Positions 2,066-62,603 of a DNA stretch of 64,000 nt are shown here, piece after piece (the stretch's first letter is position 1; every line of letters starts with the position of its first letter). The position numbers and the translations under genes are program-made. Below the pieces are notes generated by a model, which worked only from the letters and a program-made list of their open reading frames with translations, was not told where the DNA came from and did no database searches. This stretch comes from a virus (taxonomy: Duplodnaviria; Caudoviricetes): IMG/VR virus record IMGVR_UViG_2795386114_000004, positions 4,641 to 68,640 of that record; one strand, written 5' to 3'.

Positions 2066-2376
2066 CCGACGACACCGAACTGCCCCGTCCGGCCACCGTG
2101 CAGATGCTCGCACTCGCCGAGGCCGCCCGGCCGGACTGGTCGATCGATCTCCTGAGGGACGTCCTCGCCCAGATCCGCTGCCGCGAAGACATGAGCTTCG
2201 GCCGCCTGGTCGTGGCTGTCGCGCAGCTGATCGCCGACCCCGAGGCCGAACCCCCAGACCTGCTCGCCGCCGCACCCGAGTTGTGGCGCCGCCGCCGGCG
2301 CCCGCCGGGACCCGAGACCGCACATCGCGGGGCCGCCGCCGTACGCGCGGCCCTGCACCAACCCGACACCGACTGA
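2062..2376 (+). CDS. Hypothetical phage protein
   Basis: GTGA overlap with upstream gene; LAEAARPDW motif. Confidence 0.7.
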   Translation: MTDDTELPRPATVQMLALAEAARPDWSIDLLRDVLAQIRCREDMSFGRLVVAVAQLIADPEAEPPDLLAAAPELWRRRRRPPGPETAHRGAAAVRAALHQPDTD

Positions 2377-2392
2377 ACTCTGAAGGGAGGCG

Positions 2393-2815
2393 ATGGCGAT
2401 GACCGCAACGCTGCACATCGGCCGTCGCACCACCCCACACCAGCCGCTCGCTCGCCTGCGGGAGCGCTGGGCCGCCGTCGCACTGAAGCGCTCGCGCCGT
2501 GTCCAGACGGCCACGTTCCAGCAGTTGCACGACGCGCTGCCGCTCGACGACCCGGACCGTCACGACCTTGAGGCCCCGGCCCTCGAGGCCGCCTTCACGG
2601 CCCTGGCTGTCGACCACCCGGAGTCGGTCACTCCTGCCGACGGCGGCGTTGTGGCACGCAGTGCGGACCGCGAGCAGCTGCTCCTCGCCACGTGCGACTC
2701 CTGGTTCCGCGAGATCCACGGCCCTGAGCACAGCTGGGCACCGCGCACCCTCGCCCGTTACGAGCGGCTGATGGGTGGCGTCCGCGACTGCTTCCACCCC
2801 GGCGGTGAGTCATGA
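2393..2815 (+). CDS. Hypothetical phage protein
   Basis: GGGAGG RBS, 140 aa. Confidence 0.7.
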   Translation: MAMTATLHIGRRTTPHQPLARLRERWAAVALKRSRRVQTATFQQLHDALPLDDPDRHDLEAPALEAAFTALAVDHPESVTPADGGVVARSADREQLLLATCDSWFREIHGPEHSWAPRTLARYERLMGGVRDCFHPGGES

Positions 2816-3147
2816 CCACCGGAACCCGCGAGCTCCAGGCCAACGCCGCCACCCTCGCCGCACTGCACGAGAGGCTGTACGTCCTCTTCGGCCGCACCGT
2901 GCGCGAGGTCCGCATCACCCGCGTCTCCTGGCCCGACGGCAAGCGGTGGGTGGCCATGGTGATCGGCACCCACGGCCGGGAGGTACCCATCTTCGACGGC
3001 GGCCTCCACCACGTGGCCGCGGTCGTCCTGCGGGACGCCTTCCCGGACGCCGACTGGGACGTCGCGCAGGACTACGACGTCGCCACCGGGGTCTTGCGCC
3101 AGCACGTCGTCCGGATGCCCGCCAGTCTGAGGGGTGACGAGCTGTGA
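2812..3147 (+). CDS. Hypothetical phage protein
   Basis: ATGA coupling, GC3 bias. Confidence 0.7.
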   Translation: MTTGTRELQANAATLAALHERLYVLFGRTVREVRITRVSWPDGKRWVAMVIGTHGREVPIFDGGLHHVAAVVLRDAFPDADWDVAQDYDVATGVLRQHVVRMPASLRGDEL

Positions 3148-4019
3148 CGAAGATCGAGTGGACCGACCGCACCTGGAACCCGGTCACCGGCTGCACGAAG
3201 GTCTCGCCGGGCTGCGACCACTGCTACGCCGAGAACATCGCCCGCCGCTTCTCCGGCAGCAAGGCGTTCCCGAACGGCTTCAACGTCACTCTCCACGACG
3301 AGCGACTCAGCCAGCCCTTCCGGTGGAAGAAGCCGGCCCGGGTCTTCGTGAACTCCATGAGCGACCTGTTCCACGACAGCGTCCCGGACCTGTTCATCAC
3401 CCAGGTCTTCGACGTCATGGAGGCTGGACTCAACCGCCGTCACACCTTCCAGATCCTGACCAAGCGGCACGCCCGGATGCGGTCGTTCATGCAGGCCCGG
3501 CAGAAGGCGAAGCAGGAGTACGCGGCGAAGTTCAACGACTGCCCCACCGAGGCGATGCGGAACAGCCCGGCCGCGCAAGACGCCAGGGCTCGGGCCTCGA
3601 AGCCGCCCGCGAACATCTGGCTTGGCGTGTCCGTCGAAAACCAGAAGTGGGCCGACATTCGTGTGCCCGCACTGCTGGAGACGCCGGCGGCCGTGCGGTT
3701 CCTCAGCTGCGAACCGTTGCTCGGGCCTGTCGACCTCACGCGCCTTCGCCCACACGTATGCGGCCACGGCCCCGACGGTGTGTGCGAGCGCTGGATCCAC
3801 GGCATCGACTGGGTCATCGTGGGCGGCGAGTCCGGCCCCCGCGCCCGCGCCATGCACCCCGACTGGGCTCGCTCCCTGCGTGACCAGTGCGCTGCCTCCA
3901 ACGTGCCGTTCTTCGTCAAGCAGCTCGGCTCCTGCTGGGGCAGGCACCACAAGGACATCGACCAGTTCCCGGCCGACCTCCGCGTCCGCGACTTCCCGCA
4001 GGAGGCCGTCAATGCGTGA
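3144..4019 (+). CDS. DUF5131 (phage Gp37/Gp68, radical-SAM-like) protein
   Basis: IEWTDRTWNPVTGCTKVSPGCDHCYA, FVNSMSDLFH, FLSCEPLLG, IDWVIVGGESG, VPFFVKQ. Confidence 0.92.
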   Translation: MTKIEWTDRTWNPVTGCTKVSPGCDHCYAENIARRFSGSKAFPNGFNVTLHDERLSQPFRWKKPARVFVNSMSDLFHDSVPDLFITQVFDVMEAGLNRRHTFQILTKRHARMRSFMQARQKAKQEYAAKFNDCPTEAMRNSPAAQDARARASKPPANIWLGVSVENQKWADIRVPALLETPAAVRFLSCEPLLGPVDLTRLRPHVCGHGPDGVCERWIHGIDWVIVGGESGPRARAMHPDWARSLRDQCAASNVPFFVKQLGSCWGRHHKDIDQFPADLRVRDFPQEAVNA

Positions 4020-4512
4020 CGTCGACCTCGCCTACCTCGCTGGCGTCATCGACAGCGACGGCTACATCAGCGCAGCCAACAGCACCCACAAGGGCCGCCG
4101 CTATTTCGGTGCCGCGGTTGGCATCGCTGGGACCCGTCGAGACCCGCACGATCTCGCCGCTGGCTTCTTCGGCGGGAGCGTCCGGATCTACTACCCGAAG
4201 GACGACCGCGCCCACCACCGGCCTCAGTACCAGTGGCAGCGCTATGGACGCAGCGCTGTGCCCGTGATCAGCGCCGTGCTCCCATACCTCCGCGTCAAGG
4301 CAGAGCAGGCGCGGCTGGCGCTGGAACTTCAGGAGTCGCTCGACGAAGCGCGCCTGATGCGCAGCCACGAGGACCCGTTCCCGTGGTTCGGGCCGGACTA
4401 CGACCCGACAAAGGACCTGGCCGATCTGGCCGACGAGGTACGAGCGCTGAACATCCGCGGCATGACGCGCGCCGACCGCATCCACGATGCCTTCCCTGGG
4501 GGTGCTCGATGA
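4012..4512 (+). CDS. Single-motif LAGLIDADG homing endonuclease-like protein
   Basis: N-terminal LAYLAGVIDSDGYI; later VLPYLRVKAEQA typical of the fold. Confidence 0.8.
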   Translation: MRDVDLAYLAGVIDSDGYISAANSTHKGRRYFGAAVGIAGTRRDPHDLAAGFFGGSVRIYYPKDDRAHHRPQYQWQRYGRSAVPVISAVLPYLRVKAEQARLALELQESLDEARLMRSHEDPFPWFGPDYDPTKDLADLADEVRALNIRGMTRADRIHDAFPGGAR

Positions 4513-4868
4513 GCCGCCCCCAGGCCCGCCCGAGGGCCGACCACCAGCATGCAGCAGACCAGGCCCGGCAGATGCCCGGCCAGTGGGTCCTCGCGGGGAC
4601 GTACGCCAGCAGCGCCAGCGCCGTCGCGGCCGCGCTCCAGGTCCGCACCGGCGAGAAGGCTCCCGGCTACAGGCCCGCCGGAGCGTATGAGTCGCGCACC
4701 GAACTGACGCAGGACGGCGCCGACCTCTGGGTCCGCTACCTCGCGACGAGCGGCGGCCGCGGTCCCCGCGACGACTACCGCGACTCGCTGACCTCAGGAC
4801 TGACCGAAACCTTCGACGCCTTCTCCAGCCGCCTCGACGCGGCCGACCCCTCCCGGAGGACTCGATGA
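4509..4868 (+). CDS. Hypothetical phage protein
   Basis: ATGA coupling; ARQMPGQWVLAGTY...LWVRY. Confidence 0.7.
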   Translation: MSRPQARPRADHQHAADQARQMPGQWVLAGTYASSASAVAAALQVRTGEKAPGYRPAGAYESRTELTQDGADLWVRYLATSGGRGPRDDYRDSLTSGLTETFDAFSSRLDAADPSRRTR

Positions 4869-5098
4869 TCGCCCCCTTCATCCGCCGCTTGCGCACCTGG
4901 CTGAACGACGCCCAGGCCAACCGGCTCCGCGCCCAGCTGGCTGAAGCCCAGGACCGCAACCGCGAGCTGGAGCAGCGCGTGGCCGACCTCCAGGCCGCCA
5001 ACGAGGGCGCCTACCACGAGCTCGCCATCGAGCGCGGCATCGCCTGCCTGAGAACCGGCTGCTCGGTCTGCTCGACCGTCCAAAAGGCGGCCGCGTGA
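4865..5098 (+). CDS. Small coiled-coil protein with terminal Cys motif
   Basis: ATGA coupling, heptad-rich. Confidence 0.65.
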   Translation: MIAPFIRRLRTWLNDAQANRLRAQLAEAQDRNRELEQRVADLQAANEGAYHELAIERGIACLRTGCSVCSTVQKAAA

Positions 5099-5565
5099 TC
5101 GCCTACCTGTTCCTGTCCGCCAGCGCCGTTGGCACCGCGGCCGCCGTCTACTTCGTGGCCCCGGCCGGCCGTGGCCTGCACCGGTACGTAGTGCCCCGGT
5201 CCGTGCTGCGGGCGGAAGCTGCCCGCAGCACGGCGGAGGTCGAAGAGCTCGTGTGCAAGCTGGTCGGCCTCTCGTCCGAGCTGGACACCGTCAGCACCGC
5301 CCGGGACGACGCCCAGGCCGGCCTCGACAAGGCCATGCTGCGCATCGCAGACCTCGAGGAGCAGCTGCGCGAGGCGGACAAGGTGCGCGAGGGCGAACAC
5401 CGCGCTCAAGGCCCAGCTGGCCAACGTCAGCGCTATCCGGCCCCTGCCGCTCAGCGGCAGCGCACCACAACCCGCTGCACAGCCGATGCCACTGAATCGG
5501 GCGCCGTTCGCCCTCGGCCCGGCACAGACGCCGAGCTGACCCCCGACCCGCCCGCCGCCGGGTGA
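5095..5565 (+). CDS. TM plus coiled-coil protein; probable 1-nt insertion near 5391
   Basis: Coiled coil continues as ANTALKAQLANVSAIRPL in the shifted frame after GAGGGCG. Confidence 0.6.
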   Translation: MIAYLFLSASAVGTAAAVYFVAPAGRGLHRYVVPRSVLRAEAARSTAEVEELVCKLVGLSSELDTVSTARDDAQAGLDKAMLRIADLEEQLREADKVREGEHRAQGPAGQRQRYPAPAAQRQRTTTRCTADATESGAVRPRPGTDAELTPDPPAAG

Positions 5566-5630
5566 CACCGGCCTCGGCGGCGGGCGCCCGCACCACCATC
5601 CACCACTGATCCGCCCGCCTGGAGCATCCC

Positions 5631-5996
5631 TTGAAGAAGAAGCCCACCCGCATCACCAGCCGCCTGACCACGACCAAGCTGATCGAGACCGTGGCCGCCG
5701 ACCTCGGCATCCCCACGTCGGACGCCCACGAGACGGTGATGGTCGTCTTCGACGCCATCGCGCGTGCCACCGCATCCGGACACGACGTGGCGATCACCAA
5801 CTTCGGCACCTGGCTGTCGTACCGCACCAAGGCGCGCAGGGCCCGCAACCCGCAGAACGGCGACGTCGTCACGGTGCCCGCCCACCAGAAGGTCCGATTC
5901 CGTGTGTCGCCCACGCTCGCCGACGCCGTGCACCGCCGCGACCGCAAGGCCAGCATCCGCAAGGCACCCAAGGGCACCGCGAAGGCCGCGGAGTGA
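5631..5996 (+). CDS. HU/IHF-family DNA-binding protein
   Basis: KLIETVAADLG...VAITNFGTW...ARRARNPQNG...VRFRVSPTLADAV. Confidence 0.9.
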   Translation: MKKKPTRITSRLTTTKLIETVAADLGIPTSDAHETVMVVFDAIARATASGHDVAITNFGTWLSYRTKARRARNPQNGDVVTVPAHQKVRFRVSPTLADAVHRRDRKASIRKAPKGTAKAAE

Positions 5997-5999
5997 CAC

Positions 6000-6653
6000 A
6001 TGGCCTACACAGGAGCCGTCCCGGACACCGGGCCCCACCGCCTCGACTGGATGGACCACGCGGCATGCCGGGACCAGCAGGAGATCTTCGACGACCCGAG
6101 CCGCGAGCACGAGGCCCGCGTCATCTGCGTCGCACGCTGCCCCGTCCGCTCCCGGTGCCTCGCGTTCACGAAGGAGTCCGAGCGCGGACTGCACCGCGAC
6201 CAGCGTGACAGCGTCGCCGCCGGCCTCACCCACTCCGAGCGGCACCGACTCGACAGCGCAGCGGTCCACCGCGCAGACGACCCGACGCCGATCGTCTTCG
6301 ACGGCACGGAACGGTGTGGTACCCACCACGCCCTGCTTCGGCACCTGTGGAACGACGAGCCCATCGACTCGAAGTGCTGGAGCGGCGAAGTCCGACGCGA
6401 TTGGGACAACCGGACAGTTCCCACACCGGCGGTGTCAGCAGTCCCGCAGCCGGAGCCCCAGGTCCTGAAGCCCGCGCCACCGCGGCAGCGGCCGCCAGCC
6501 AAAGGCGAAACCCCGCACGAACGGCGCCTCTACCGACTATGGGCCGACGGCTGCACCGACCTGCAGATCGCCCGCGCCATGGCCATGAGCGTTCCCGCAG
6601 TGCAGCGCGTCCGTAACCGGCTCGGCCTGCTGCCGAACCGGCACACGGCCTGA
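6000..6653 (+). CDS. WhiB-family regulator with extra Cys/His module and C-terminal HTH
   Basis: WMDHAACRD...ICVARCPVRSRC (four Cys); CGTHHALLRH...C; TDLQIARAMAMSVPAVQRVRNRLGL. Confidence 0.85.
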   Translation: MAYTGAVPDTGPHRLDWMDHAACRDQQEIFDDPSREHEARVICVARCPVRSRCLAFTKESERGLHRDQRDSVAAGLTHSERHRLDSAAVHRADDPTPIVFDGTERCGTHHALLRHLWNDEPIDSKCWSGEVRRDWDNRTVPTPAVSAVPQPEPQVLKPAPPRQRPPAKGETPHERRLYRLWADGCTDLQIARAMAMSVPAVQRVRNRLGLLPNRHTA

Positions 6654-6695
6654 CGGCCCCCTCGACGACACCTCCGAACCGACCCAGGAAGGTCC

Positions 6696-6938
6696 ATGTC
6701 CTTGCTCAGCCTCATCGCCATCGGCGTCACCGTGCTCTCGGTGGTCGGGCTCGCCTTCGGTTTGCCCGACCGGTGGTTCTGCGCCCTGCTCGCCCTGGCC
6801 TGCATGCTCGGCGCCGCCGACGCGGCCTACAGCGAGCTCACGGCCTGGGCGATCGGAGGCCTCGCCGGCGGACTGCTGCTGTGCGGTGCCTCCGCCCACG
6901 CCGCCCTCACGGCCAGCCGAGAGCGGAGCCAGCGGTGA
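6696..6938 (+). CDS. Small membrane protein
   Basis: Three hydrophobic segments, GGAAGG RBS. Confidence 0.7.
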   Translation: MSLLSLIAIGVTVLSVVGLAFGLPDRWFCALLALACMLGAADAAYSELTAWAIGGLAGGLLLCGASAHAALTASRERSQR

Positions 6939-7150
6939 CGCCCCACCAGGTCTTCGCCGTCGCGGCGATCGGAGGCCTCGCTGCCGTGGTCAGCCTGGCC
7001 CTGCTCACCGGCTTGTTCCTCGCCCTCTACGCCGCCGTCACGCGCCTCACCGTGGCCCGGCAGGCCCGACGCGAGCGGCGCCGCCACCTCAAGGCCTGCC
7101 GCGCCATCGACGCGCTCGGCACCACCGAACCCACCCGACACACCCGCTGA
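6935..7150 (+). CDS. Small membrane protein
   Basis: GTGA coupling; one long hydrophobic helix and basic tail. Confidence 0.65.
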   Translation: MTPHQVFAVAAIGGLAAVVSLALLTGLFLALYAAVTRLTVARQARRERRRHLKACRAIDALGTTEPTRHTR

Positions 7151-7159
7151 AAGAGACCC

Positions 7160-7330
7160 ATGTCCGACAACGCACAGCTCGCCCGCACCGGTACCGCCGG
7201 AGCCCTCGTCATCGGCACCACCGTCATCACCGGCTGGTGGCTGCTCGCCGCCGCGGCCGCCGTCGTGGCGCTCGGCGCCATCTGCATCCGCGTAGGCTTC
7301 CGCACCGGCCGGGGAGCAGGCGAGCAGTGA
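7160..7330 (+). CDS. 56-aa micropeptide consisting essentially of a LAXTG-type sortase sorting signal
   Basis: Manual translation MSDNAQLARTGTAGALVIGTTVITGWWLLAAAAAVVALGAICIRVGFRTGRGAGEQ; stop overlaps the GT2 start. Confidence 0.8.
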   Translation: MSDNAQLARTGTAGALVIGTTVITGWWLLAAAAAVVALGAICIRVGFRTGRGAGEQ

Positions 7331-8841
7331 CCAGACCCCTCACCGCCCACCGGCACCGCTCCGGCATCCTCCTCACCGGCGCGATATGCCTGACGCTCGC
7401 CGCCGGATGGGCCGTCCACCACGGCCTCCAAGCCGCCCACTACGGGCACGGCAGCAGCCGCCTGGCCGCCGTGTGGGCCGTAACTTTCCTGCTGCTCGCC
7501 ACCCAGACGGCGATGTACCACGCCGAGCGCCCGCACCGTCTCTCAACGCGGGCCCACCGCCAGCTCGACGCGCTGCACGTCGCGGTGCTGCTGCCCGTCT
7601 ACAACGAGGACGAGGGCTACCTCAGGCTCGGCCTGGAGTCGATGCTCGCCCAGACCCGCCGCCCCGACAGCGTGCACATCGTCGACGACGGCTCCACCCA
7701 CGGCGACTACGCCACCGTGCGCGCCTGGTGGACCCAGGCCGCCACGGAGGCCGGGATCACCACCACATGGAAGCGAACCGCCAACAAGGGCAAGCGGCAC
7801 GCCCAGGCCGCCGCAGTTGGGGCGAGTCCCCAAGCCGACGTGTACGTCACCGTCGACTCGGACTCCTGCCTCGCACCCAACGCCCTCGAGGAACTGCTGC
7901 TGCCATTCGGGGCCCGCTCGCGCCGCACACTCCTCGGCCGCCGACAGAAGCCCGTCCAGTCCGTCGCCGGGCTCGTGCTCGCCACCAACCACCGCACGAA
8001 CCTGCTCACCAGGATCTGCGACCTGTGGCTCACCACCGGGCAGCTCACCGACCGCTCCGCCCTGTCCGCGACGGGCGCCGTCCTCGTCAACTCCGGCCCG
8101 CTGGCCGCGTACCGCGCGCCGATCGTCAGGGACAACCTCGGCTCATACCTCGACGAGTGGTTCATGGGCCGGCTCGTGAACTTCTCCGACGACAGCATGC
8201 TGACCCTGTACGCGCTCCTGCGGGGCCGGACCGTCCAGCAGCCGACCGCGGTCGCGTTCACCGCCCTCCCGGAACGGCCCCAGCACTTCGCCCGCATGTA
8301 CCTGCGCTGGATGCGCGGCTCCACCATCCGGTCCGTGTGGCGCTTCCGCTACCTGCCCCTCACCAGCTGGCCCTACTGGGCGCACCTACTGCGCTGGTTC
8401 CAACTCGCCCTGTCCAGCGCCGTACTCGTCTGGCTGCTCATCGTCGAGCCAGCCGCCTACGACCGCACCCCGCCGGCGAGCTTCCTGATTGTGCCGTTCC
8501 TGATCGGCTGGGCGCAGGGCCTGCGCTACCTGTCCATCACTCGCAACGACGAGACCTTCGCAGACCGCCTCATCACCTGGCTGCTGATGCCGCTCGCCGT
8601 CATCTGCTCCTGGACGGCGCTCCGGGCCATGCGCTGGTACGGCATGGCCACCTGCGCCCGCACCGGCTGGGGCACCCGCCAGAACGGCGCCGAAGTCACC
8701 CTCGACGCCGCCCCGGTGCCGGACAACGACACGGAGCAGCTGCCCGTCATGAAGCTGCTCGACCCCGACTCCGAAACCACCCTCACCGTGCCCATCCCAC
8801 GCCAGCGCACCGCCGTGCCCCAGCCCGAAGGAACGCGATGA
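7327..8841 (+). CDS. Processive membrane GT2 glycosyltransferase, hyaluronan synthase/NodC/chitin synthase-like
   Basis: PVYNED, IVDDGS, NKGKRHAQ, TVDSDS, NSGPLAAYR, SDDSMLT, YLRW, C-terminal WGTR; N- and C-terminal TM helices. Confidence 0.9.
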   Translation: MTRPLTAHRHRSGILLTGAICLTLAAGWAVHHGLQAAHYGHGSSRLAAVWAVTFLLLATQTAMYHAERPHRLSTRAHRQLDALHVAVLLPVYNEDEGYLRLGLESMLAQTRRPDSVHIVDDGSTHGDYATVRAWWTQAATEAGITTTWKRTANKGKRHAQAAAVGASPQADVYVTVDSDSCLAPNALEELLLPFGARSRRTLLGRRQKPVQSVAGLVLATNHRTNLLTRICDLWLTTGQLTDRSALSATGAVLVNSGPLAAYRAPIVRDNLGSYLDEWFMGRLVNFSDDSMLTLYALLRGRTVQQPTAVAFTALPERPQHFARMYLRWMRGSTIRSVWRFRYLPLTSWPYWAHLLRWFQLALSSAVLVWLLIVEPAAYDRTPPASFLIVPFLIGWAQGLRYLSITRNDETFADRLITWLLMPLAVICSWTALRAMRWYGMATCARTGWGTRQNGAEVTLDAAPVPDNDTEQLPVMKLLDPDSETTLTVPIPRQRTAVPQPEGTR

Positions 8842-10502
8842 GCCACCCGACCTTCCCCGAGACGTTCGTCGTGCAGCGCGACGAGGACGTCTCCGGTATC
8901 TCCGGCGAGGGCATCGTCGCCGAAGGCGTCCAGTTCTCCGACGGCTGGGTCGTCACCCACTGGCTCGACCAGCCGCCCATGAACGAGCCGAAGACCGACG
9001 TCTGGCACAACAAGGGCGCCGCCCCCTTCCGAAAGATCCACGGCCACGGCGGCAGCACCCGCATCCTGTGGGCCGACGAAGTCGCCGCAGCACGCCGAAA
9101 GGCCCTCGCCGATATGGTCGAGGCGTTCGACGTGCCGCCGGAGATATGCGGCACGGAGGCCGAAGGGGCCTACTGGCGACAGCAGATCGAGTGCGCCCTA
9201 CGCGGGGCCTCCACCGAGATGCGCGTCGAGCACGTGGAAGACCTGCCGGGCGTGCCGGGGCCGGTCGAGTTGCGGGGCTGGCTGACCAGGTTCACCGACG
9301 CTGTGGTGCCCATCCTCACGGAGGTCCTCGAGCAGAGGAACCGTGCCAAGGGCGCCGCAGGCCGGGCCTACCTACTCGCCGACCGCTGGGAGGCCGCGCA
9401 CGGCTCGTCGATGTTCCTCGTCCGGGCCGCCGGCGCCGAGCTGCGCGACGTCCTGGACGACTCTGGCAGGACGCGCGACAAATTCGTCCACGCGCAGCCG
9501 AAGGCGCAGGACAGCGGGCCGTCGGGGGTGGACTACGCGGCCACCGAGGCGACCGGCTTGCACCGGCCGGACACCAGGGCAGCGACCGAAGCGACCGACG
9601 GCTGCACCAACGCGTGCGAGAGCGCCACAGGCATACGCGGCCTACTGGAGCACGTCGGCATCGACACCACTGGCCGGGACATCACCGTCGCGGGCAACGT
9701 CGTCGACGCCGCCAAGCCCACCGCATGCGACGCCTACCAGCCCCCCACCGAGCCCGCCGACAGCGGATTCTGCGCCCGCTGCGGGATGTACGACTACAAG
9801 CACCACGCCAGGCCGGTCCGACGCCTCGCCGACACCCAACCGACGCCCACCGACGACGCCCAGCGCGCCTCGATCGCCGCCGCCCTCACCGCCGAGCACT
9901 ACCGCCGCGCAGAGGCCCGCATCGTCGCCAGCCCGGAGGAGCACTGCGCGGCGATGGCCGACGCTGTGATGCGGGTGCTAAGAGGCGTCGACACCACCGA
10001 CGACGCCCCGACGACGACCGCCCGACGCCCCGTCGTCAGCGTCCACGGCGCGCGTGACATGAGCCCCGAGGCGCGCGAGGCCGTCGGCGCCCTGGTCGAC
10101 GTGGCCAAGCGGCAGATGACCGAGGCCCCGGCCAGCGACGAGGATGCGCAGCGCACCGCCCGCCGCGACAGCACCCGCAACCTTCTCGACGGCCTCGCAC
10201 ACCGCGGTTACCTCAGCAGCGACGAGACCGCCCTGCTCCGCCAGCACATCGACGCCGAGACCCGCGACGCCGACACCTTCCGTGCCGTCGCCCGAGCGAA
10301 CCTGCGGCACGTCCAAGAGATGTTGCCGGAGCTGGGGAACGCCGAGGCCGCCATCGAGCGCGTGCGCGAGGTGCCGCCCTTCGTCGAGCGGGTCCTCGCA
10401 CTGTCTGGCCCCGGGGTGTCGAGAGTCGCAGTGCAGCGCATCGCCGATCGGCTGCGCGCCGCCCTCGACGGCACCGAGCAGCCCACCAGCACGGAGGCGT
10501 GA
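8838..10502 (+). CDS. Large mosaic hypothetical phage protein
   Basis: ATGA coupling; N-terminal RDEDVSGISGEGIVAEGVQFSDG module; internal CARC motif. Confidence 0.75.
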   Translation: MSHPTFPETFVVQRDEDVSGISGEGIVAEGVQFSDGWVVTHWLDQPPMNEPKTDVWHNKGAAPFRKIHGHGGSTRILWADEVAAARRKALADMVEAFDVPPEICGTEAEGAYWRQQIECALRGASTEMRVEHVEDLPGVPGPVELRGWLTRFTDAVVPILTEVLEQRNRAKGAAGRAYLLADRWEAAHGSSMFLVRAAGAELRDVLDDSGRTRDKFVHAQPKAQDSGPSGVDYAATEATGLHRPDTRAATEATDGCTNACESATGIRGLLEHVGIDTTGRDITVAGNVVDAAKPTACDAYQPPTEPADSGFCARCGMYDYKHHARPVRRLADTQPTPTDDAQRASIAAALTAEHYRRAEARIVASPEEHCAAMADAVMRVLRGVDTTDDAPTTTARRPVVSVHGARDMSPEAREAVGALVDVAKRQMTEAPASDEDAQRTARRDSTRNLLDGLAHRGYLSSDETALLRQHIDAETRDADTFRAVARANLRHVQEMLPELGNAEAAIERVREVPPFVERVLALSGPGVSRVAVQRIADRLRAALDGTEQPTSTEA

Positions 10503-10777
10503 CCATGGCGCGCCGTATCAGGGCAGTGTCGGTTGAGCAGCTCCTCACCGACGCTGGCCACGAGTTCAGCAACTTCGATGCGCAGGCTGCGGAGTGGGAC
10601 CCCGGCGTACGTGTGACGCAGGCCGGTCCTCGCCAGGTGAACGTCTTCTGGGACGGGCCCGGCGAGGCTGACCAGCTCGAAGTCATCACCGTGGAACTGC
10701 GCGGCGAGGGCTACCACGTCGTGCTCAGCCAGCAGGACCGCGGCGGCCGCCGGCGCCTGGAGGTGACCCGGCCATGA
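10499..10777 (+). CDS. Hypothetical phage protein
   Basis: Coupled ORF, GGAGG RBS. Confidence 0.65.
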   Translation: MTMARRIRAVSVEQLLTDAGHEFSNFDAQAAEWDPGVRVTQAGPRQVNVFWDGPGEADQLEVITVELRGEGYHVVLSQQDRGGRRRLEVTRP

Positions 10778-11091
10778 GCGACCGCCGCGTCATCGACTGC
10801 GAACTGCTGTGGGCGCAGACCAGGCGTACTCCCGGGCTGCTGCCCATCGTGCAGCGGTGGTGTCGCCTCAACGGCATCAACCCGAGCCAAGTGCCCGTCG
10901 ACTCGAAGATGATCATCGAGGACAGCGCGTACGGGCTCGTCATCCGCTACGACGCCTACCTGACCACCGAGGACGGATACCGGTACGTCGACCCCAACAA
11001 CCCCGACCAGGCGGCTGTCGAACCGCGCACCGCCGTGCTCGCCGTAGCGCCGCCCGACGCCTGGCTGAACCTCCCGGACGGTGCCCAGTGA
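10774..11091 (+). CDS. Hypothetical phage protein
   Basis: ATGA coupling, GGAGG RBS. Confidence 0.7.
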   Translation: MSDRRVIDCELLWAQTRRTPGLLPIVQRWCRLNGINPSQVPVDSKMIIEDSAYGLVIRYDAYLTTEDGYRYVDPNNPDQAAVEPRTAVLAVAPPDAWLNLPDGAQ

Positions 11092-32420: not shown

Positions 32421-32791
32421 TGGAGGTACCCCCTGGACTGGGGGAGCGAGGCCGGCGGATGTGGGAGGAGTCCCTGGCGATCTGGTCTCTGACTCCGGCG
32501 CATCTGGTGCTGCTGGAGGAGGCTTGTCGGGTCGCTGACCGGCTTGACCTTCTGAACACCATGTTGCTCGCGCTCTCCGGGGATGTCAACCCGGATGTCG
32601 CGCAATTCGCTGATATTTCGGGACTGTTGGCGGAGTCTCGGCAGCAATCCAGTGCTCTCAAGTTGCTGTTGGCGGAGATTCGCCAAGGTCAGACGGGTTC
32701 TGTCCCGGCCAAGGAAGAGCCGGCGGGGGGTGTGGGTGTCTCCGACCTCACCAAGCGAATCGCTGACCGCCGCCGCCAGGCCGAGGGTTGA
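32420..32791 (+). CDS. Terminase small subunit
   Basis: PPGLGERGRRMW..LLEEACRVADRLD..LLAESRQQ..LLAEIR; position. Confidence 0.8.
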   Translation: MEVPPGLGERGRRMWEESLAIWSLTPAHLVLLEEACRVADRLDLLNTMLLALSGDVNPDVAQFADISGLLAESRQQSSALKLLLAEIRQGQTGSVPAKEEPAGGVGVSDLTKRIADRRRQAEG

Positions 32792-34265
32792 GGTCCACCC
32801 GCCGTACGCGTACACGCTCGGCGCGGAGGCCTGCACCCTCGCCGCGCGCGCCGGCCTCATCGCGGATCCGTGGCAGCGCGACGCCGTAGACCTGCTGCTG
32901 GCCTGCCGGGACGACGGCAAGTGGGCGTGCTACGAGTACGCCGAGCTCGTAGCACGCCAGAACGGCAAGGGCGGCATCCTCGAAATCCGTGTGCTCGCCG
33001 GGTTCCTGCTCCTGGAAGAGCAGCTGATCCTGTGGTCGGCCCACGAGTACAAGACCTCGATGGAGGCCTTCCGGCGCGTCCGGGCGCTCTTGCGGAAGCT
33101 CGGCAAGCAGGTCGGGAACAACGAGAACCTCATCGAGGTCGACGGTGTCCTGATCAAGATCTCGAACACCAACGGCGAAGAGGGCTTCGAGCGCCTGGAC
33201 ACGGGCGCCCGCATCAAGTTCGTCGCCCGGTCGAAGGGCAGCGGCCGCGGCTTCAGCGGTGATTTGATCATCATTGACGAGGCGTTCGCTTACACGCTGC
33301 TCCAGCAGGACGCGCTCACCCCGACCCTGAGGGCCCGCCCGAACCCGCAGATCATCTACACGTCGTCGCCGCCCCTCGACGGCGCCAGCGGGGACGTGCT
33401 GTACGCGCTGCGCGCGCGAGCCGAAGCAGGCGGGGACGACTCGCTCGGGTACCGCGACTGGGGGGCCGAGGGCGACCTGGACCATCTGGAGAAGGTGGAC
33501 CTTGACGACCGGTGCCTGTGGGCGGCGACCAACCCGGCCTGGGGGCGACGCGTCACCGAGGAAGCCACGCTGCGCGACCGGCGAGGCATGAGCCCAAAGG
33601 GCTTCGCCCGGGAGATCCTCGGCATCTGGCCGCGCCGTTCGCAGGGCAACGCCGTCATCGACCCGCGGCTGTGGGCCACGATGGCCGACGAACACTCCCA
33701 GCGAACGGCCGCCGGCGGCGTTGCGCTCGGCGTCGACATCAGCCCCCTGAGGGACTACGCCGCGGTGTGCGTGTACGGCGTCCGCGCCGACGGCCTCGGT
33801 CACGTGCAGCTCGCCGACTACCGCTCCGGCACGAAGTGGCTGATCCCGCGTCTCGTCGAACTACGCGATGCTCTCGGCCCGATCGCGCTGGCCATGGGCC
33901 GCGGCACCCACGCCTTCCTCGACACCGACCTCAAAGAGGCCGGGTTTCAGTTGCCGGAGGACAAGGATGCGCCCGAGGCTGGCGACCTCGCGGTGACCGG
34001 AGCGATCGAGATGGCGGCCGCCGCGGGCCAGGTCCTCGAAGGCGTACGCGAGCAGGCGTTCCGGTACGTGCCGAACGAGCACCTCGACACCGCGGTGGCC
34101 GGCGCGAAGACCAAGCAGAGCGGGGACACCATCGCGTGGGCGCCGGCCGGATCCGACGTCGAGATCAGTCCGCTGGTCGCCATGTCCGTGGCCCGCTGGG
34201 TCTACGTCAGCCGCTCCTTCCTCCTGGCGGGCCAGCAGTACGACGTCCTCGCCTCGATCTTCTGA
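32736..34265 (+). CDS. Terminase large subunit (start approximate)
   Basis: PWQ, VARQNGK (Walker A), LIIIDEA (Walker B), ALGVDISP nuclease motif. Confidence 0.95.
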   Translation: MSPTSPSESLTAAARPRVEVHPPYAYTLGAEACTLAARAGLIADPWQRDAVDLLLACRDDGKWACYEYAELVARQNGKGGILEIRVLAGFLLLEEQLILWSAHEYKTSMEAFRRVRALLRKLGKQVGNNENLIEVDGVLIKISNTNGEEGFERLDTGARIKFVARSKGSGRGFSGDLIIIDEAFAYTLLQQDALTPTLRARPNPQIIYTSSPPLDGASGDVLYALRARAEAGGDDSLGYRDWGAEGDLDHLEKVDLDDRCLWAATNPAWGRRVTEEATLRDRRGMSPKGFAREILGIWPRRSQGNAVIDPRLWATMADEHSQRTAAGGVALGVDISPLRDYAAVCVYGVRADGLGHVQLADYRSGTKWLIPRLVELRDALGPIALAMGRGTHAFLDTDLKEAGFQLPEDKDAPEAGDLAVTGAIEMAAAAGQVLEGVREQAFRYVPNEHLDTAVAGAKTKQSGDTIAWAPAGSDVEISPLVAMSVARWVYVSRSFLLAGQQYDVLASIF

Positions 34266-34337: not shown

Positions 34338-35621
34338 ATGCGTAACCCCTTCCGGCGCTTGGGCTGGACACGCGGCGGCAACGGAGCGGCCCGGGCGGCC
34401 GCCGAGCAGCGGGACCTGGGTCCCGGTGACGTCTCATGGCCGGTGGATGACCTGGCGGCGCCAGCCGCGGTGTCCGAGCACGGCGCGCTGCGGCTCACCC
34501 CGGTGTTCGCCGCAGGGCGCCTGCTGTCGACCTCAGTGTCATCGCTGCCGATTCAGCAGTACCGGCGTGTCGGGGATGCCACGGCGAAGTTGCCGCTCAA
34601 CTCGCTGTTCCAGTCACCCTCGTCGCAGGGCACCATTGACGACTGGCTGAAGCGGGCCATGACCTCGCTGGTCTACCGGGGCAATGCGGTCGGCTTGGTG
34701 ACGGAGCGGGACTGGCTGGAGTTCCCGACCCGGATCGAGTGGCTGAACCCGGCCCACGTGTTCGTGCAGGACAGCATGCCGTTGGGCCAGCGCGGCTCGT
34801 TCACGGATCCGGTGTGGTCGTACTGCGGGGTCGAGATCCCGGCGTACGACATCGTGCACATCCCCTGGATGACCATGCCGGGCCGCGTGTGGGGCCTCTC
34901 GCCCATCGCCGCCTACGCGGTCACCGTATCGACGGGCCTCGCGGCGCAGCAGTTCGTCGACGACTACTTCCGGGCCGGCGGCCAGCCGCCCGGCCACTTC
35001 CGCAACACCCAGCAGACCGTGGACCAGAAGGACGCCCGCATCATCAAGCGGCGCCTGGTGCAGTCGATCCGGTCGCACGAGCCGATCGTGTACGGCAAGG
35101 ACTGGGACTACACGCCGATCACGATCAGCATCCAGGAAGCCCAGTTCTGCGAGACGCAGCGGCTGACCGCGACGCAGATCGCCGCGATTTACGGCATCCC
35201 GCCCGAGAAGATCGGCGGCGAGACCGGCGGCTCCTACACCTACAGCTCGCCCGAGCAGCGGCAGATCGAGTTCATCCAGGACGCCCTGCTGCCCTACCTG
35301 GTGAGCCTGGAGAACCACCTGAGCGCGCTGCTGCCGCGCGGCCAGTACATCAAGTTCAACGCCGACGCCCTGATCCGCGTGGACATCCTCACCCGGCACT
35401 CCGTGTACGAGAAGCAGCGCCTCATCGGCTCGGCCAACCTCGACGAGATCCGCGCCCTCGAGGACCAGGCTCCGCTGCCCGACGGCAAGGGCCAGGACTA
35501 CACGCCGCTGCCCATCCAGGCCGGCGCCAACATCACCGTCCCACAGATCCGCGGCGACCGTCCGCCCCACGATCCGGGGCTTCGCCTCGTCACCACCCCG
35601 AGGGGGAGGAACCATGGTTGA
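34338..35621 (+). CDS. HK97-family portal protein
   Basis: VSSLPI..LVYRGNA..GLSPI..QFCETQRLTATQIAAIYGIPP..NLDEIRALED. Confidence 0.95.
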   Translation: MRNPFRRLGWTRGGNGAARAAAEQRDLGPGDVSWPVDDLAAPAAVSEHGALRLTPVFAAGRLLSTSVSSLPIQQYRRVGDATAKLPLNSLFQSPSSQGTIDDWLKRAMTSLVYRGNAVGLVTERDWLEFPTRIEWLNPAHVFVQDSMPLGQRGSFTDPVWSYCGVEIPAYDIVHIPWMTMPGRVWGLSPIAAYAVTVSTGLAAQQFVDDYFRAGGQPPGHFRNTQQTVDQKDARIIKRRLVQSIRSHEPIVYGKDWDYTPITISIQEAQFCETQRLTATQIAAIYGIPPEKIGGETGGSYTYSSPEQRQIEFIQDALLPYLVSLENHLSALLPRGQYIKFNADALIRVDILTRHSVYEKQRLIGSANLDEIRALEDQAPLPDGKGQDYTPLPIQAGANITVPQIRGDRPPHDPGLRLVTTPRGRNHG

Positions 35622-36812: not shown

Positions 36813-38204
36813 ATGGATGAGCGATTCCGGCGGCTTGTCGCCCGGCGCGAGCAGACCGCCCGCGAGCGCGAGGAGATCCTCGCCAAGCGCAAGGCCATCA
36901 CCGACCTCGCTGAGGAGGAGGCCCGCGAGGACCTCCTCCCGGAAGAGGACGCCGAGTTCCGAGAGCTGACCTCTCAGGTCGCGGCGAAGGACGACGAGCT
37001 GCGTCAGCTCGACGAGCGCATCTCGGAGCTGTCAGAGGAGGCCGAGCGCAACCGGACCGTCACTGAAGGCGCGAAGGCCGTCCAGCGGGCCAAGGCCCGC
37101 GTCACCTCCGTCAACGAGGCCCGCATCTACGAGAAGGGCAACGGCCGTTCCTACCTCCAGGACCTGGCCCGAGTCCAGCTCAACATGGACGCCGACGGCG
37201 GCGCCCGCGACCGGCTCGTCCGGCACGCCCAGGACGTCGCGACCGACCCGGAGTACCGCGACCTCAACCGCACCGACGGCAACGGCGGCTACTTCGTCCC
37301 GCCGCTGTGGCTGATGGATCAGTACATCGAGCTCGCCCGCGCCGGACGCGCGTACGCGAACGTCGTGAACAACCAGCCCCTGCCCGGCGGCACCGACTCG
37401 ATCAACATCCCGAAGGTCGCCACCGGCACGGCCACCGGGACCCAGACGGCAGACAACGGTGCCGTTCAGGAGACTGACGCCACCGACACGTTCATCAACG
37501 CCCCGGTCCGCACAATCGCCGGCCAGCAGGACGTCGCCATCCAGCTCCTGGACCAGAGCCCCGTCTCCTTCGACGAGGTCATCTTCCGCGACCTGGTCGC
37601 CGACTACGCCACGAAGACCGACCTCCAGGTCATCTCCGGCTCCGGTTCTTCCGGCCAGGTCACCGGCGTGCGCGCCACGTCCGGCATCACCACCATCACG
37701 TACACCGACGCGACGCCCACCGTCGCCAAGCTGTACTCGAAGATCGCTGACGCGGTGCAGCGGGTCCACACCCTCCGCTTCATGGCTCCGACTGCGATCG
37801 TGATGCACCCTCGCCGGTGGGCGTCCCTGCTCGCCGCGTCCGACTCCAACGGGCGCCCCCTGGTCGTCCCCGAGGCGGGCAACCCGCAGAACGCGGTCGC
37901 CACCCTCGGCGTCGTCGGCTCCCAGCAGGTCGTCGGCCAGATGCACGGCCTGCCCGTCATCACCGACCCGTCCATGCCGACCAACCTCGGCGCCGGCACC
38001 AACGAGGACGTCGTCCACGTCATCCGGGCCAGCGACATCCTCCTGTACGAGTCGGGCATCCGCTCCCGCGTCCTGCCAGAGGTCGGCTCCGGCAACCTCA
38101 CCGTGCGCCTCCAGATCTACGGCTACCTCGCCTTCACCGCGGCCCGCTACCCGGCGTCCGTGGTGGAGATCGGCGGCACCGGCCTGGTCGCGCCGTCGTT
38201 CTGA
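36813..38204 (+). CDS. HK97-fold major capsid protein with N-terminal coiled-coil (delta) domain
   Basis: Coiled-coil N-terminus; GGYFVPP; IVMHPRRW..DSNGRP. Confidence 0.95.
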   Translation: MDERFRRLVARREQTAREREEILAKRKAITDLAEEEAREDLLPEEDAEFRELTSQVAAKDDELRQLDERISELSEEAERNRTVTEGAKAVQRAKARVTSVNEARIYEKGNGRSYLQDLARVQLNMDADGGARDRLVRHAQDVATDPEYRDLNRTDGNGGYFVPPLWLMDQYIELARAGRAYANVVNNQPLPGGTDSINIPKVATGTATGTQTADNGAVQETDATDTFINAPVRTIAGQQDVAIQLLDQSPVSFDEVIFRDLVADYATKTDLQVISGSGSSGQVTGVRATSGITTITYTDATPTVAKLYSKIADAVQRVHTLRFMAPTAIVMHPRRWASLLAASDSNGRPLVVPEAGNPQNAVATLGVVGSQQVVGQMHGLPVITDPSMPTNLGAGTNEDVVHVIRASDILLYESGIRSRVLPEVGSGNLTVRLQIYGYLAFTAARYPASVVEIGGTGLVAPSF

Positions 38205-52923: not shown

Positions 52924-53196
52924 ATGCCTCAGGTCACTCCCGGCCGCACCGTCCTCTACCGGCTCACCGAGGACGACGCGCGGCAGATCACCCGGCGCCG
53001 CACTGACAGCGGTGTGACCGGCAACTTTGTCAGCGAAGGCGACCGGTACCCGGCCGTCGTCGTCCGCATCTTCGCCGGGAATCCCGCCGACGTCTGCAAC
53101 CTCAAGGTGCTCCTGGACGGCGACGACACCTACTGGGCGACCTCCCGCCATGAGGGCACCGAGCCCGGCACGTGGGCGTGGCCGGAGCGCGTGTGA
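52924..53196 (+). CDS. Hypothetical phage protein
   Basis: AAGGAG RBS; GRTVLYRL..PAVVVR..NLKVLLDG..WAWPERV. Confidence 0.8.
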   Translation: MPQVTPGRTVLYRLTEDDARQITRRRTDSGVTGNFVSEGDRYPAVVVRIFAGNPADVCNLKVLLDGDDTYWATSRHEGTEPGTWAWPERV

Positions 53197-53390
53197 TGGC
53201 CGACCACGATTCCGCCCAGCTCGCCCGGGCCGCCTACGCCGCGTACGGCGAAACGACCGGCGGCCGCAACTACCAGGGCCAGCCCATGCCCGCCTGGGAG
53301 GACCTCGGCGAAGTGATCCAGCAGGCGTGGACCGTGGCCGCGACCACCGTCGCCCGGATCGTCACCACCCCACAGAGACCGGAGAACTGA
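53196..53390 (+). CDS. Small hypothetical phage protein
   Basis: AAYAAYG..NYQGQPMPAWEDL. Confidence 0.75.
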   Translation: MADHDSAQLARAAYAAYGETTGGRNYQGQPMPAWEDLGEVIQQAWTVAATTVARIVTTPQRPEN

Positions 53391-53392
53391 CC

Positions 53393-54472
53393 ATGGCCAC
53401 ACCGCTCACCGCGGACCAGCTGGTCGCCGCGCTGCTCGCTGAGGGCTGCACCGTGCACCAGGTCAGCAACTGGCGGACCCACAATCGCAACAGCCGCGGA
53501 GCGTGGGGGCCGGTCAATGGCGTGATGAACCACCACACCGCCACCGGCCCCAACGTCGACATCGTCGACATGATCTACGGCGGTCGCAGCGACCTTCCCG
53601 GGCCGCTGGCAACCGGCTGCATCACCAAGAACGGCGTCGTCCACCTCGTCGCCAATGGCCGCGCTAACCACGCCGGTGGCGGCGACCCGAACGTGCTGGC
53701 CGCCGTGCGCAACGAGTCGTACGGCGACCGGCCGCCCGCCACCCACCAGCACGAGGGCTCCGCCGGAGCGGTCGACGGCAACAGCCACTTCTACGGCTTC
53801 GAGTGCGAGAACGAGGGCGACGGCAAGGACCCGTGGCCCCGGGTGCAGTACGTGGCCATGGTCAAGGCCAACGCCGGGATCTGCCGCGCGCACGGCTGGA
53901 GCCACAAGAGCGCGATCGGCCACCTGGAGTGGAGCGACTGGAAGCCCGACCCGCGCGGCTTCGACATGAAGAACTTCCGCCAGGACCTCGCCGACTGCCT
54001 CGCGCTCCCGCCAGGCCAGTGGGCAAGCACGCAAGGAGGCGACGACCACATGCCCCTCTACGTCAACCTCGGCCTCGACGACCCCGTGACGCTACAGCCC
54101 GGCGCGGACTGGGACGCCATCGAGTTCACCGCCGAGTGGACCGACGAACCCGGCGACCACGCCACCGACGGCTCCGTCTTCGTCCGTGGCCCGGCCCGCT
54201 TCACCGGCGAACTCACCCTCGCCATCACCGGGCTCCCGACCGGGCGCGAGCTCCAGGTTCGCCAGTCCGAGTGCGACTCCGCCGGCGCCTACGTCCAGGA
54301 CCACCCCGTCGGCGAGGTCATCGGCACCGGCGGCACCAGCTTCGCGAAGGTCCCCGTCACCGGCCGCGTCGACTCCGGCCGCCAGATGCGGATCCGCGTG
54401 AAGGCCTTCGAGACCACACCGGTGACGATCACGAGCGCCGTGCTGAAGGTGCTCGTCTGGAAGGAGAGCTGA
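53393..54472 (+). CDS. Endolysin, N-acetylmuramoyl-L-alanine amidase (Amidase_2) plus C-terminal domain
   Basis: VMNHHTA, GRANHAG, FYGFECEN, IGHLEW..KPDP. Confidence 0.92.
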   Translation: MATPLTADQLVAALLAEGCTVHQVSNWRTHNRNSRGAWGPVNGVMNHHTATGPNVDIVDMIYGGRSDLPGPLATGCITKNGVVHLVANGRANHAGGGDPNVLAAVRNESYGDRPPATHQHEGSAGAVDGNSHFYGFECENEGDGKDPWPRVQYVAMVKANAGICRAHGWSHKSAIGHLEWSDWKPDPRGFDMKNFRQDLADCLALPPGQWASTQGGDDHMPLYVNLGLDDPVTLQPGADWDAIEFTAEWTDEPGDHATDGSVFVRGPARFTGELTLAITGLPTGRELQVRQSECDSAGAYVQDHPVGEVIGTGGTSFAKVPVTGRVDSGRQMRIRVKAFETTPVTITSAVLKVLVWKES

Positions 54473-62459: not shown

Positions 62460-62603
62460 ATGAGGGCGGACGTGAACTGCCGGACGGCTGGCGGCGGTGG
62501 CGGGGGCGGTGGAGGTGAAGGCGGCGACGGCCTGCCTGGCCAGCCGTGGCCCGGGCCGCCGGTGCCCCCGTCCCCCGACGGCGGACCGAGGGTCGTCGGC
62601 TGA
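62460..62603 (+). CDS. Putative RiPP precursor peptide (47 aa, Gly-rich, two Asp-Gly motifs)
   Basis: AGGGAG RBS; MRADVNCRTAGGGGGGGGGEGGDGLPGQPWPGPPVPPSPDGGPRVVG; stop 1 nt before the PIMT start. Confidence 0.7.
   Translation: MRADVNCRTAGGGGGGGGGEGGDGLPGQPWPGPPVPPSPDGGPRVVG

Follow-up and report, generated by a model that had tools for sequence, protein, structure and literature searches.

The LARTG micro-protein and its hyaluronan synthase-like neighbor

Analysis of a 64,000-base stretch (the window; GC content 69.5%) of the Caudoviricetes provirus record IMGVR_UViG_2795386114_000004, an IMG/VR entry of 68,640 bases rated complete, located a gene of 56 codons, positions 7160-7330, directly upstream from a gene coding for a membrane-integrated family 2 glycosyltransferase (GT2). 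The encoded micro-protein, MSDNAQ-LARTG-TAGALVIGTTVIT-GWWLLAAAAAVVALGAICI-RVGFRTGRGAGEQ, is composed of six residues, the pentapeptide LARTG, a Gly-rich stretch, a hydrophobic helix and a tail with three arginines; it has neither a signal peptide nor a passenger domain. Its stop codon overlaps the start codon of the GT2 gene in the sequence GTGA. An earlier note, made from the DNA sequence alone, had described this open reading frame (ORF), its short N-terminus, motif, helix and tail, and the overlap; all of these were present in the sequence. The coordinates are collected in Table 1.

Spurious ORFs are common in DNA of high GC content, this ORF is short and its Shine-Dalgarno sequence is weak (AAAGAG), all of which would fit a chance open frame upstream from the GT2 gene. 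However, the GC content at codon positions 1, 2 and 3 (0.68, 0.63 and 0.88) was coding-like for DNA of this composition, strong GGGGGAG-type ribosome binding sites were found in most homologous loci, length, start and stop/start overlap were conserved, and homologues numbered 92 clusters and 214 distant representatives. Comparison with 26 homologues of the same length gave 496, 430 and 560 differences at the three codon positions, which are saturated. Since 79 of the 86 related loci show this ORF again, with its length, motif and overlap, it is a real gene, and the probability of a chance frame is negligible.

A single membrane passage is predicted for the micro-protein, in an N-out, C-in orientation. 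Membrane topology follows the positive-inside rule, and the net charge was -1 to +1 for the N-terminal part and, in 76 of 77 unique peptides, +2 to +10 for the C-terminal tail, a distribution that would place the N-terminus, and the motif with it, on the outer side. Searches of Pfam, NCBIfam, PHROGs and PADLOC yielded no family for the peptide; the GT2 had no PHROGs match either, and PADLOC gave none for the pair or its neighbors. If the homologues bear a name in their sources, it is almost always 'hypothetical protein', the exceptions being 'peptidase' (P0183, P0192) and 'acyl dehydratase' (P0194); genes of this kind, of 50-60 amino acids, escape current family models.

The GT2 matched PF00535 (45.8 bits) and PF13641 (37.9 bits), both above the cut-off. 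With a profile of 15 homologues, the best solved relatives were the Chlorella virus hyaluronan synthase (HAS; CvHAS, E 4e-18) and Xenopus HAS1, and the GKR, DSD, GPLxAY, (S/G)DD and RW motifs aligned to CvHAS; DSD, GPLxAY, SDD and RW were invariant in 55 homologues. The AlphaFold2 (AF2) model obtained with a 55-sequence alignment (pLDDT 87.6, pTM 0.86) had a HAS-like overall fold, its catalytic domain flanked at either end by transmembrane helices; a previous run with 15 close homologues (pLDDT 43) was discarded. When the PDB was searched with Foldseek, ranks 1 to 13 were all hyaluronan synthases (E 6e-18 to 8e-15, TM 0.49-0.62), followed by an archaeal mannosyltransferase, BcsA and chitin synthases, with BcsA and the chitin synthases at about 1e-11. 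The score on the NodC equivalog TIGR04242 was 105.1 bits, far under its cut-off of 550, and TIGR03111 (XrtG-associated GT2) matched at E 1.9e-4.

By sequence and predicted fold the enzyme is class I hyaluronan-synthase-like, in agreement with the earlier note, which had singled out SGPLxxYR and WGTR (here SGPLAAYR and GWGTR). It shares with class I HAS two N-terminal helices plus C-terminal helices around the GT2 domain, although identity in the Foldseek structural alignments was only about 16-17%, at TM of about 0.55-0.62. To our knowledge, no HAS is co-translated with a peptide carrying a sortase motif.

A reading of the micro-protein as a ribosomally synthesized and post-translationally modified peptide, with the GT2 acting on it as SunS, a glycocin-type glycosyltransferase, acts on its substrate, was rejected: the GT2 is membrane-integrated, HAS-like and carries the processive RW motif, and the peptide is itself a membrane protein.

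A gene for a nucleoside diphosphate (NDP)-sugar 6-dehydrogenase was present within 6 kb in 40 of the 79 bacterial genome loci described below, 36 of them among the 72 that carry the peptide, and in none of the seven viral loci. This recalls streptococcal hasA-hasB, in which HasA is paired with HasB. Twenty-five of the 36 dehydrogenases were UDP-glucose-dehydrogenase-like; the other 11 resembled UDP-N-acetylmannosamine/N-acetylglucosamine (UDP-ManNAc/GlcNAc) dehydrogenases, a difference from class I HAS loci. These neighbors and the HAS-like character of the GT2 suggest that its product is probably an acidic, uronic-acid-containing polymer. The first type of neighbor is consistent with hyaluronan, and the second suggests other uronic sugars in some copies.

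Distribution of the pair, its motif and adjacent sortase genes

The occurrence of a LAXTG or LPXTG micro-ORF upstream from homologues of the GT2, on which the earlier note had made its proposal depend, was analyzed in 86 loci: the window record, Streptomyces phage Kromp, five IMG/VR proviruses and 79 contigs taken from one genome per species, mostly Streptomyces, plus Kitasatospora, Actinomycetospora, Pseudonocardia, Actinospica and one plasmid. A hidden Markov model (HMM) of the peptide matched the six-frame translations of 82 loci; three of these matches (L076, L077 and L083) were in the wrong frame, with a GC content at third codon positions (GC3) of about 0.5, and were dropped as artefacts. 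The peptide was located directly upstream from the GT2 in 79 loci, all seven viral ones and 72 of those on genome contigs, and LAxTG occupied the aligned position in 76 of these 79 peptides. The remaining three carried LAKSG, IASTG and, on the plasmid, NAATG. The expected conservation was therefore found.

Of 78 loci, 73 had a 4-nt overlap between the two genes (GTGA in 58, ATGA in 15), and in three of the five loci without this overlap the GT2 was broken. In phage Kromp the stop codon of gp78 (56 aa, LASTG) overlaps gp79, annotated as 'glycosyltransferase'. The peptide never occurred without the GT2 in the loci examined. Conversely, seven loci had no peptide: L042, in which the GT2 is intact, L043, L078 and L086, in which it is truncated or fragmentary, and the three loci with artefactual matches. 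In these last three (about positions 5100-5850) the GT2s, of 42-43% identity, are preceded by a conserved multi-pass membrane protein of 246 aa, and a UDP-ManNAc/GlcNAc-dehydrogenase-like gene lies close by.

With 72 copies that include the peptide on contigs of bacterial genomes, 36 of them with a dehydrogenase within 6 kb, and one copy on a plasmid, the pair is not phage-specific, and phages carry it as cargo. The surface-remodelling system proposed in the earlier note can thus not be regarded as a phage-specific one. Three groups of loci share a context: that of the window prophage (HU-like gene, WhiB-like gene, small membrane ORFs, peptide, GT2 and a homologue of the ORF at 8838-10502), that of Kromp, and another mobile-looking one. 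The rest are chromosomal, with varied flanks.

In samples of 401 genomes taken at order, class and phylum level around one host, GT2 matches were found in 7 (E<=1e-40), 13 (E<=1e-50) and 31 (E<=1e-40) genomes; the last tally includes two unpublished genomes, which were omitted from all else. The peptide was detectable only with the closer relatives of the GT2. One protein of 367 aa (P0272) joins the first ~41 peptide residues, in frame, to the GT2 sequence starting near GT2 residue 43, and its C-terminal part is read in a different frame; an internal deletion in a decaying copy is a more probable origin than a natural fusion.

A word-indexed search produced 92 peptide clusters of 30-98 aa, in which all named organisms were Streptomyces. 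LAxTG was found in 90 clusters (LARTG 80, LAQTG 5, LASTG 3, LAHTG 2) and IARTG in two. In an alignment (A2) of 50 diverse members with 36-89% identity to the window peptide, G11 was the sole invariant column and ten others (M1, L7, A8, T10, G19, G25, A32, G39, R44 and R48) were at least 90% conserved; the L-A-x-T-G motif was the best conserved part of the peptide. Position x varied, with Q in 27, R in 18, A in 12, H in 7, K in 5, S in 4, N in 2, and Y and L in one each of 77 unique peptides.

The A2 profile was also searched against 1.84 billion (1.84e9) representative proteins and yielded 214 matches at E<=1e-3, clusters at 50% identity, nearly all of them stand-alone proteins of about 47-75 aa. 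Among the 149 inspected, 78 carried LAxTG, 45 LPxTG and 26 neither; several of these 26 were N-terminally truncated calls or near-variants (LPFAG, LSATG). Peptides of the LP type were found in place upstream from GT2 homologues in L094 (LPRTG), L126 and L133 (LPTTG) and L138 (LPFTG). Class E sortases favor LAXTG and most other classes LPXTG (PMC5148588). An alternation of exactly Ala and Pro, with L, T and G fixed and x drifting, is the hallmark of these two canonical motifs. The Streptomyces plasmid pRLB1-9.1 (L060:5804-5971) has NAATG at the canonical site and, eight residues downstream, a second motif, LAATG, as if the motif had been displaced or were decaying.

A class E sortase gene was found to adjoin the pair in three Pseudonocardiaceae genomes, with scores on the class E model NF033747 (cut-off 160 bits) of 176.6 in L068, 200.8 in L067 and 201.6 in L131. 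In Pseudonocardia L068 the peptide (5843-6010), GT2 (6007-7404) and sortase (7401-8087) genes follow one another with an ATGA overlap at both junctions. In L131 and in Actinomycetospora L067 the sortase gene lies upstream from the peptide and is divergent from it; in both, no ORF within 6 kb other than the peptide combined L[AP]xTG with a helix and tail. The L067 genes form a compact cluster (2256-7404) with the order TuaD-like UDP-glucose 6-dehydrogenase, LCP transferase, class E sortase on the other strand, micro-protein (LAYTG) and HAS-like GT2, so that every component required to make an acidic glycan and link it through sortase and LCP would be encoded together. In a family-level sample, the GT2 was present in 5 of 401 genomes, three of the five with the adjacent sortase. 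The connection to sortases that the earlier note had drawn from the motif is supported by gene order as well as by the LPxTG alternation in distant members. All five host genomes tested had sortase matches (6-13 each).

Sortase substrate, synthase subunit, or both

The micro-protein was compared with 14 canonical signals identified by TIGR01167 in two host genomes (LAETG 12, LAHTG 1, LAATG 1). Both have the tripartite layout of an L-[PA]-x-T-G pentapeptide, a hydrophobic segment and a positively charged tail, and both occur in the same host genera. The micro-protein is, however, the signal alone: four to eight residues precede the motif across the family, and it does not lie at the C-terminus of a secreted protein with a signal peptide. 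This motif grammar, the Ala/Pro alternation, the predicted outward topology and the class E sortases encoded beside the pair in one family argue that the N-terminal L[AP]xTG is a true sortase signal, and it is likely that a sortase acts on the peptide.

The membrane half has features of another kind. The helix has a fixed length and small residues (G25, A32 and G39) spaced seven apart, which are not needed in a generic signal and argue for a specific partner; we infer that this face packs against the synthase. Co-translation, fixed length, the conserved helix face and the persistence of the peptide where the motif is missing all make this half subunit-like, and the peptide would, quite probably, be a subunit of the synthase. 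Taken together, the peptide would be a partner of the synthase that is also a true sortase substrate, a combined reading which we consider evenly balanced between right and wrong.

According to this combined reading, the Gly-rich stretch, helix and tail would sit on the synthase as a small subunit, and the extracellular N-terminus of 10 residues would end in the sortase motif, which is LAxTG in the window and LPxTG in some other actinomycetes. Cleavage by a class E sortase after Thr10, with MSDNAQLARTGTAG as the candidate substrate segment for SrtE1, would leave the part from Gly11 onward with the synthase, whereas the 10-residue stub would be transferred to lipid II or peptidoglycan. The sortase would be the housekeeping enzyme of the host in Streptomyces and a dedicated enzyme encoded by a neighboring gene in Pseudonocardiaceae. 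By analogy with GspA of Actinomyces oris (see below), the step might serve to couple the product of the synthase, probably a uronic-acid-containing polymer, to the wall; among possible purposes we favor this one, but tentatively, and think it somewhat less probable than its opposite. In the window, the pair would act as a prophage conversion cassette that alters the surface of the lysogen by means of the sortase and the sugar-nucleotide pool of the host. The prophage could benefit through exclusion of other phages, a matrix or developmental effects.

Several observations weigh against the action of a sortase. The distance from the motif Gly to the first Arg or Lys was 31-33 residues in 75 of 77 peptides, compared with 23-27 residues between motif and first basic residue in the 14 canonical signals; the excess is due to the additional conserved Gly-rich stretch of 13 residues. 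Position x was never Asp or Glu in 77 plus 102 peptides, compared with LAETG in 12 of the 14 host signals, which could reflect another sortase paralogue or deliberately slow processing. Models of wall anchors did not recognize the family: the window peptide had no PF00746 or TIGR01167 match at E<=0.1, PF00746 matched none of the 50 members at E<=1, and a member with LPKTG scored 13 bits on TIGR01167, below the cut-off of 15.9. As there is no signal peptide, export of the N-terminal tail has to be assumed. Apart from L067 and L068, the first 86 loci had no sortase gene within 6 kb (84 loci, including every Streptomyces locus), nor was one found in further GT2 loci except L115, which is the Pseudonocardia genome listed again.

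The motif itself is also dispensable in places. It was lost and the peptide retained in L114, L124/L125 and L139, and it was absent from the 26 distant representatives mentioned above. Two GT2s of about 38% identity (L095:5356-5742 and L096:5482-5811) are preceded by an unrelated-looking peptide of about 52 aa. This peptide (MSDETGENLSVIDLLGEALQ...helix...SRIFKGGSL) lacks L[AP]xTG and is acidic at its N-terminus; GT2s of this clade may generally be partnered by small peptides with the N-terminus outside. The persistence of motif-less peptides upstream from the GT2 indicates that the peptide can function without a sortase and, together with the different peptide in L095 and L096, that the membrane part has a role of its own.

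The same observations are what an accessory subunit comparable to IcaD or PgaD would lead one to expect, in which L[AP]xTG would be structural or would contact the glycan at the channel exit and would never be seen by a sortase. The universal translational coupling to the GT2, the fixed helix length and the conserved small-residue face fit such a protein equally well. It accounts poorly, however, for a second motif position that toggles between exactly the two residues, Ala and Pro, used by known sortase classes, whereas L, T and G do not change and x drifts, for a motif on the predicted outer side followed by helix and basic tail in the exact grammar of a sorting signal, and for class E sortase genes that adjoin the pair in three genomes and two arrangements, with the peptide as the only candidate substrate nearby. 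This alternative is the main rival and a serious one, though we consider it rather unlikely; if correct, it would still define a new class of small subunit for HAS-like synthases.

Other alternatives accept the sortase and differ on what becomes of the stub. Cleavage might only activate, release or localize the synthase, for example to sites of wall growth that offer lipid II and sortase, with a stub that bears no glycan and has no further role. All the evidence for sortase recognition applies to such a switch, as does the subunit-like helix half. The stub is nevertheless constrained: among 102 divergent peptides it contained Tyr in 73 and Ser, Thr or Tyr in 101, and its composition was 23% G, 14% S, 14% Y and 10% D. 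This would be unexpected of a discarded piece, and the non-random composition argues that the transferred piece matters; a mere switch seems to us decidedly improbable. Alternatively, the micro-protein could be a peptide carrier, the Tyr/Ser/Gly-rich stub taking the reducing end of the glycan and the sortase moving stub and glycan onto lipid II. The glycan would be loaded either by priming at the synthase and threading out or by an extracellular transferase. Residue 2 was considered as the acceptor, and Ser or Tyr is common there without being universal (MNDYG, MPSDYG), so this idea was kept only within the carrier model. We regard a carrier as unlikely; if it were true, it would be a protein-free sortase route that fixes a synthase-dependent polymer covalently to Gram-positive peptidoglycan, and a two-gene surface-conversion cassette mobile on prophages and plasmids.

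The earlier note had also offered a sortase decoy, a phage peptide that saturates or inhibits the host sortase and so disturbs the display of chaplins or surface receptors. The peptide does contain little besides a sorting signal and is carried by prophages and by phage Kromp. Yet most known copies, as counted above, are in bacterial genome contigs, half of those beside sugar-nucleotide dehydrogenases, and a dedicated adjacent sortase would make no sense for an inhibitor. Because translational coupling to the synthase is obligate in all contexts, with no peptide found apart from a GT2, the decoy fits poorly and is very improbable.

Known systems of similar design and the provirus setting

Sortases anchor proteins and pili; hyaluronan, cellulose and poly-N-acetylglucosamine are thought to be released or held non-covalently. 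The present family, of 214 clusters, would consist of micro-proteins with an N-terminal sortase signal hard-wired to a HAS-like enzyme, and would link the fields of sortases and of synthase-dependent polysaccharides. It is a candidate for the means by which actinomycetes fix an acidic glycan to the wall and, on Streptomyces prophages, for remodelling of the surface of lysogens, which might influence phage adsorption, development and the matrix of the hyphae.

Small membrane proteins encoded beside a processive GT2, and presumably produced along with it, are known from IcaA-IcaD and PgaC-PgaD. The genes of the small subunits IcaD and PgaD follow that of the synthase, and these subunits have two helices and no sortase motif. 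Neither the window peptide nor the 50 members matched the IcaD or PgaD families of Pfam or NCBIfam. Protein-sorting transpeptidases tied genomically to a GT2 and to exopolysaccharide production are found in the exosortase/PEP-CTERM and XrtG systems, which are linked to polysaccharide loci; they differ in enzyme superfamily, in signals and in having full proteins as substrates.

The closest functional model is that of A. oris, in which the LAXTG glycoprotein GspA is glycosylated at the membrane by LcpA and then anchored to peptidoglycan by SrtA, the housekeeping class E sortase (PMC6381275). The micro-protein would resemble GspA as an LAXTG-type substrate of a class E sortase, and the L067 cluster includes an LCP gene. 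GspA, by contrast, is a full-size secreted protein whose glycan comes from a separate unknown pathway (PMC6381275). Linkage of an LCP gene to the substrate gene was confined to L067, the only peptide-bearing locus with an LCP homologue within 6 kb, which also speaks against coupling of this type; another homologue was found at L099, a locus without the peptide.

An experimental precedent for a link between sortase and polysaccharide is srtB4 of Mediterraneibacter gnavus, a sortase gene within a capsule cluster that is needed for display of an acidic capsule by a mechanism described as unknown (PMC13121745). The enzyme is a class B-like sortase with an unidentified substrate, in a Firmicute and in a cluster of the Wzy/LCP/BY-kinase type, for which no synthase-type GT2 or micro-protein is described (PMC13121745). 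The present pair is a candidate basis for this recently reported dependence of a capsule on a sortase. SafA is a small single-pass transmembrane protein that binds the actinobacterial housekeeping (class E) sortase through an FPW motif and shields it from signal peptidase (PMC9282373); unlike the micro-protein, it lacks both a sorting motif and a partner GT2.

NCBIfam already holds a family of proteins of about 54 aa, NF058583 ('LAXTG_small_WW', LAXTG motif-containing small protein), composed of a LAXTG motif, a Trp-containing helix and a tail. Sixteen of the 50 members matched it weakly (best E 1.5e-4) and the window peptide not at all; its cut-off of 65 bits was reached by none of the 50 members and none of 148 representatives (best 28 bits), and no true member was found in five hosts or 376 class-level genomes. 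The best examples under the threshold (L173 and L174, 39 bits) have 15-25 residues before the motif. In L173:1489-1695 and L174:1483-1707 the motif is LAFTG or LAMTG, and the next gene codes not for a GT2 but for a membrane protein, about 200 aa long, that has several hydrophobic stretches; signal-only mini-proteins thus occur in a second form, with different neighboring genes.

No description of the pairing of a micro-protein with a HAS-like GT2 was found in the literature covered, which did not extend to subscription-only papers and supplements. The earlier note, which knew of no such description, was right in this respect; small proteins consisting of LAXTG alone had nevertheless been named. 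Curators were thus already aware of signal-only LAXTG mini-proteins, and what is new to the libraries and literature searched is the GT2-coupled family and its synteny with sortase genes.

The pair lies in the early/regulatory arm of the provirus, after the HU-like and WhiB-like genes, in a window with a siphovirus-like gene set entirely on the + strand (Table 1).

Table 1. Positions of the gene pair, its motifs and other genes in the window
Feature	Position	Strand	Remarks
Micro-protein gene (P0005), 56 aa	7160..7330	+	ATG at 7160, stop 7328-7330
LARTG codons, residues 7-11	7178..7192	+	class E sortase-type motif; predicted cleavage T10/G11
Gly-rich juxtamembrane stretch, 13 residues (TAGALVIGTTVIT)	7193..7231	+	G19 at least 90% conserved
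Predicted transmembrane helix (GWWLLAAAAAVVALGAICI)	7232..7288	+	small residues G25, A32, G39, 7 apart
Arg-rich tail, predicted cytoplasmic (RVGFRTGRGAGEQ)	7289..7327	+	R44, R48 at least 90% conserved
GTGA stop/start overlap, micro-protein to GT2	7327..7330	+	couples translation
Membrane-integrated processive GT2 (P0004), 504 aa, GTG start	7327..8841	+	class I HAS-like
DSD (D177-S178-D179), DxD-type metal/UDP-binding motif of the GT-A domain	7855..7863	+	invariant in 55 homologues; aligns to CvHAS DSD
SGPLAAYR, residues 256-263	8092..8115	+	aligns to CvHAS GPLGAY; G257, Y262, R263 invariant in 55 homologues
GWGTR, residues 447-451, C-terminal conserved motif	8665..8679	+	W448, T450, R451 invariant in 55 homologues
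HU-like DNA-binding gene	5631-5996	+	
WhiB-like gene, 217 aa	6000-6653	+	
Two small membrane ORFs, 80 and 71 aa	6696-6938 and 6935-7150	+	hydrophobic
Large terminase	32583-34265	+	
Portal	34338-35621	+	
Major head protein	36813-38204	+	
Tape measure	43834-48501	+	
Endolysin	53027-54472	+	

The provirus record was searched for a sortase and encodes none. A scan of 5500-11000 gave no promoter-like site and one terminator-like site, which is chance level.

The two small membrane ORFs that precede the micro-protein gene, mentioned in the earlier note, are present, but are not part of the conserved unit. Their homologues were found in only four and three loci, all of the same prophage lineage (clusters c13 and c23), and not in phage Kromp, and neither ORF had a Pfam, NCBIfam or PADLOC family above the cut-off. 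They are lineage-specific prophage genes. In the WhiB-like protein the WhiB domain occupies only residues 17-84, and the C-terminal part (…LYRLWADGCTDLQIARAMAMSVPAVQRVRNRLGL) resembles an added helix-turn-helix.

On the other side of the pair, an ORF of 554 aa (8838-10502) begins with an ATGA overlap on the GT2 stop codon. Its homologues follow the GT2 in four loci of the same prophage lineage, and its PHROG match is limited to the first ~80 residues (phrog_7499, function unknown). Near the right end of the provirus, a methyltransferase of 426 aa is encoded at 62497-63777 (phrog_13505, E 1.5e-108).

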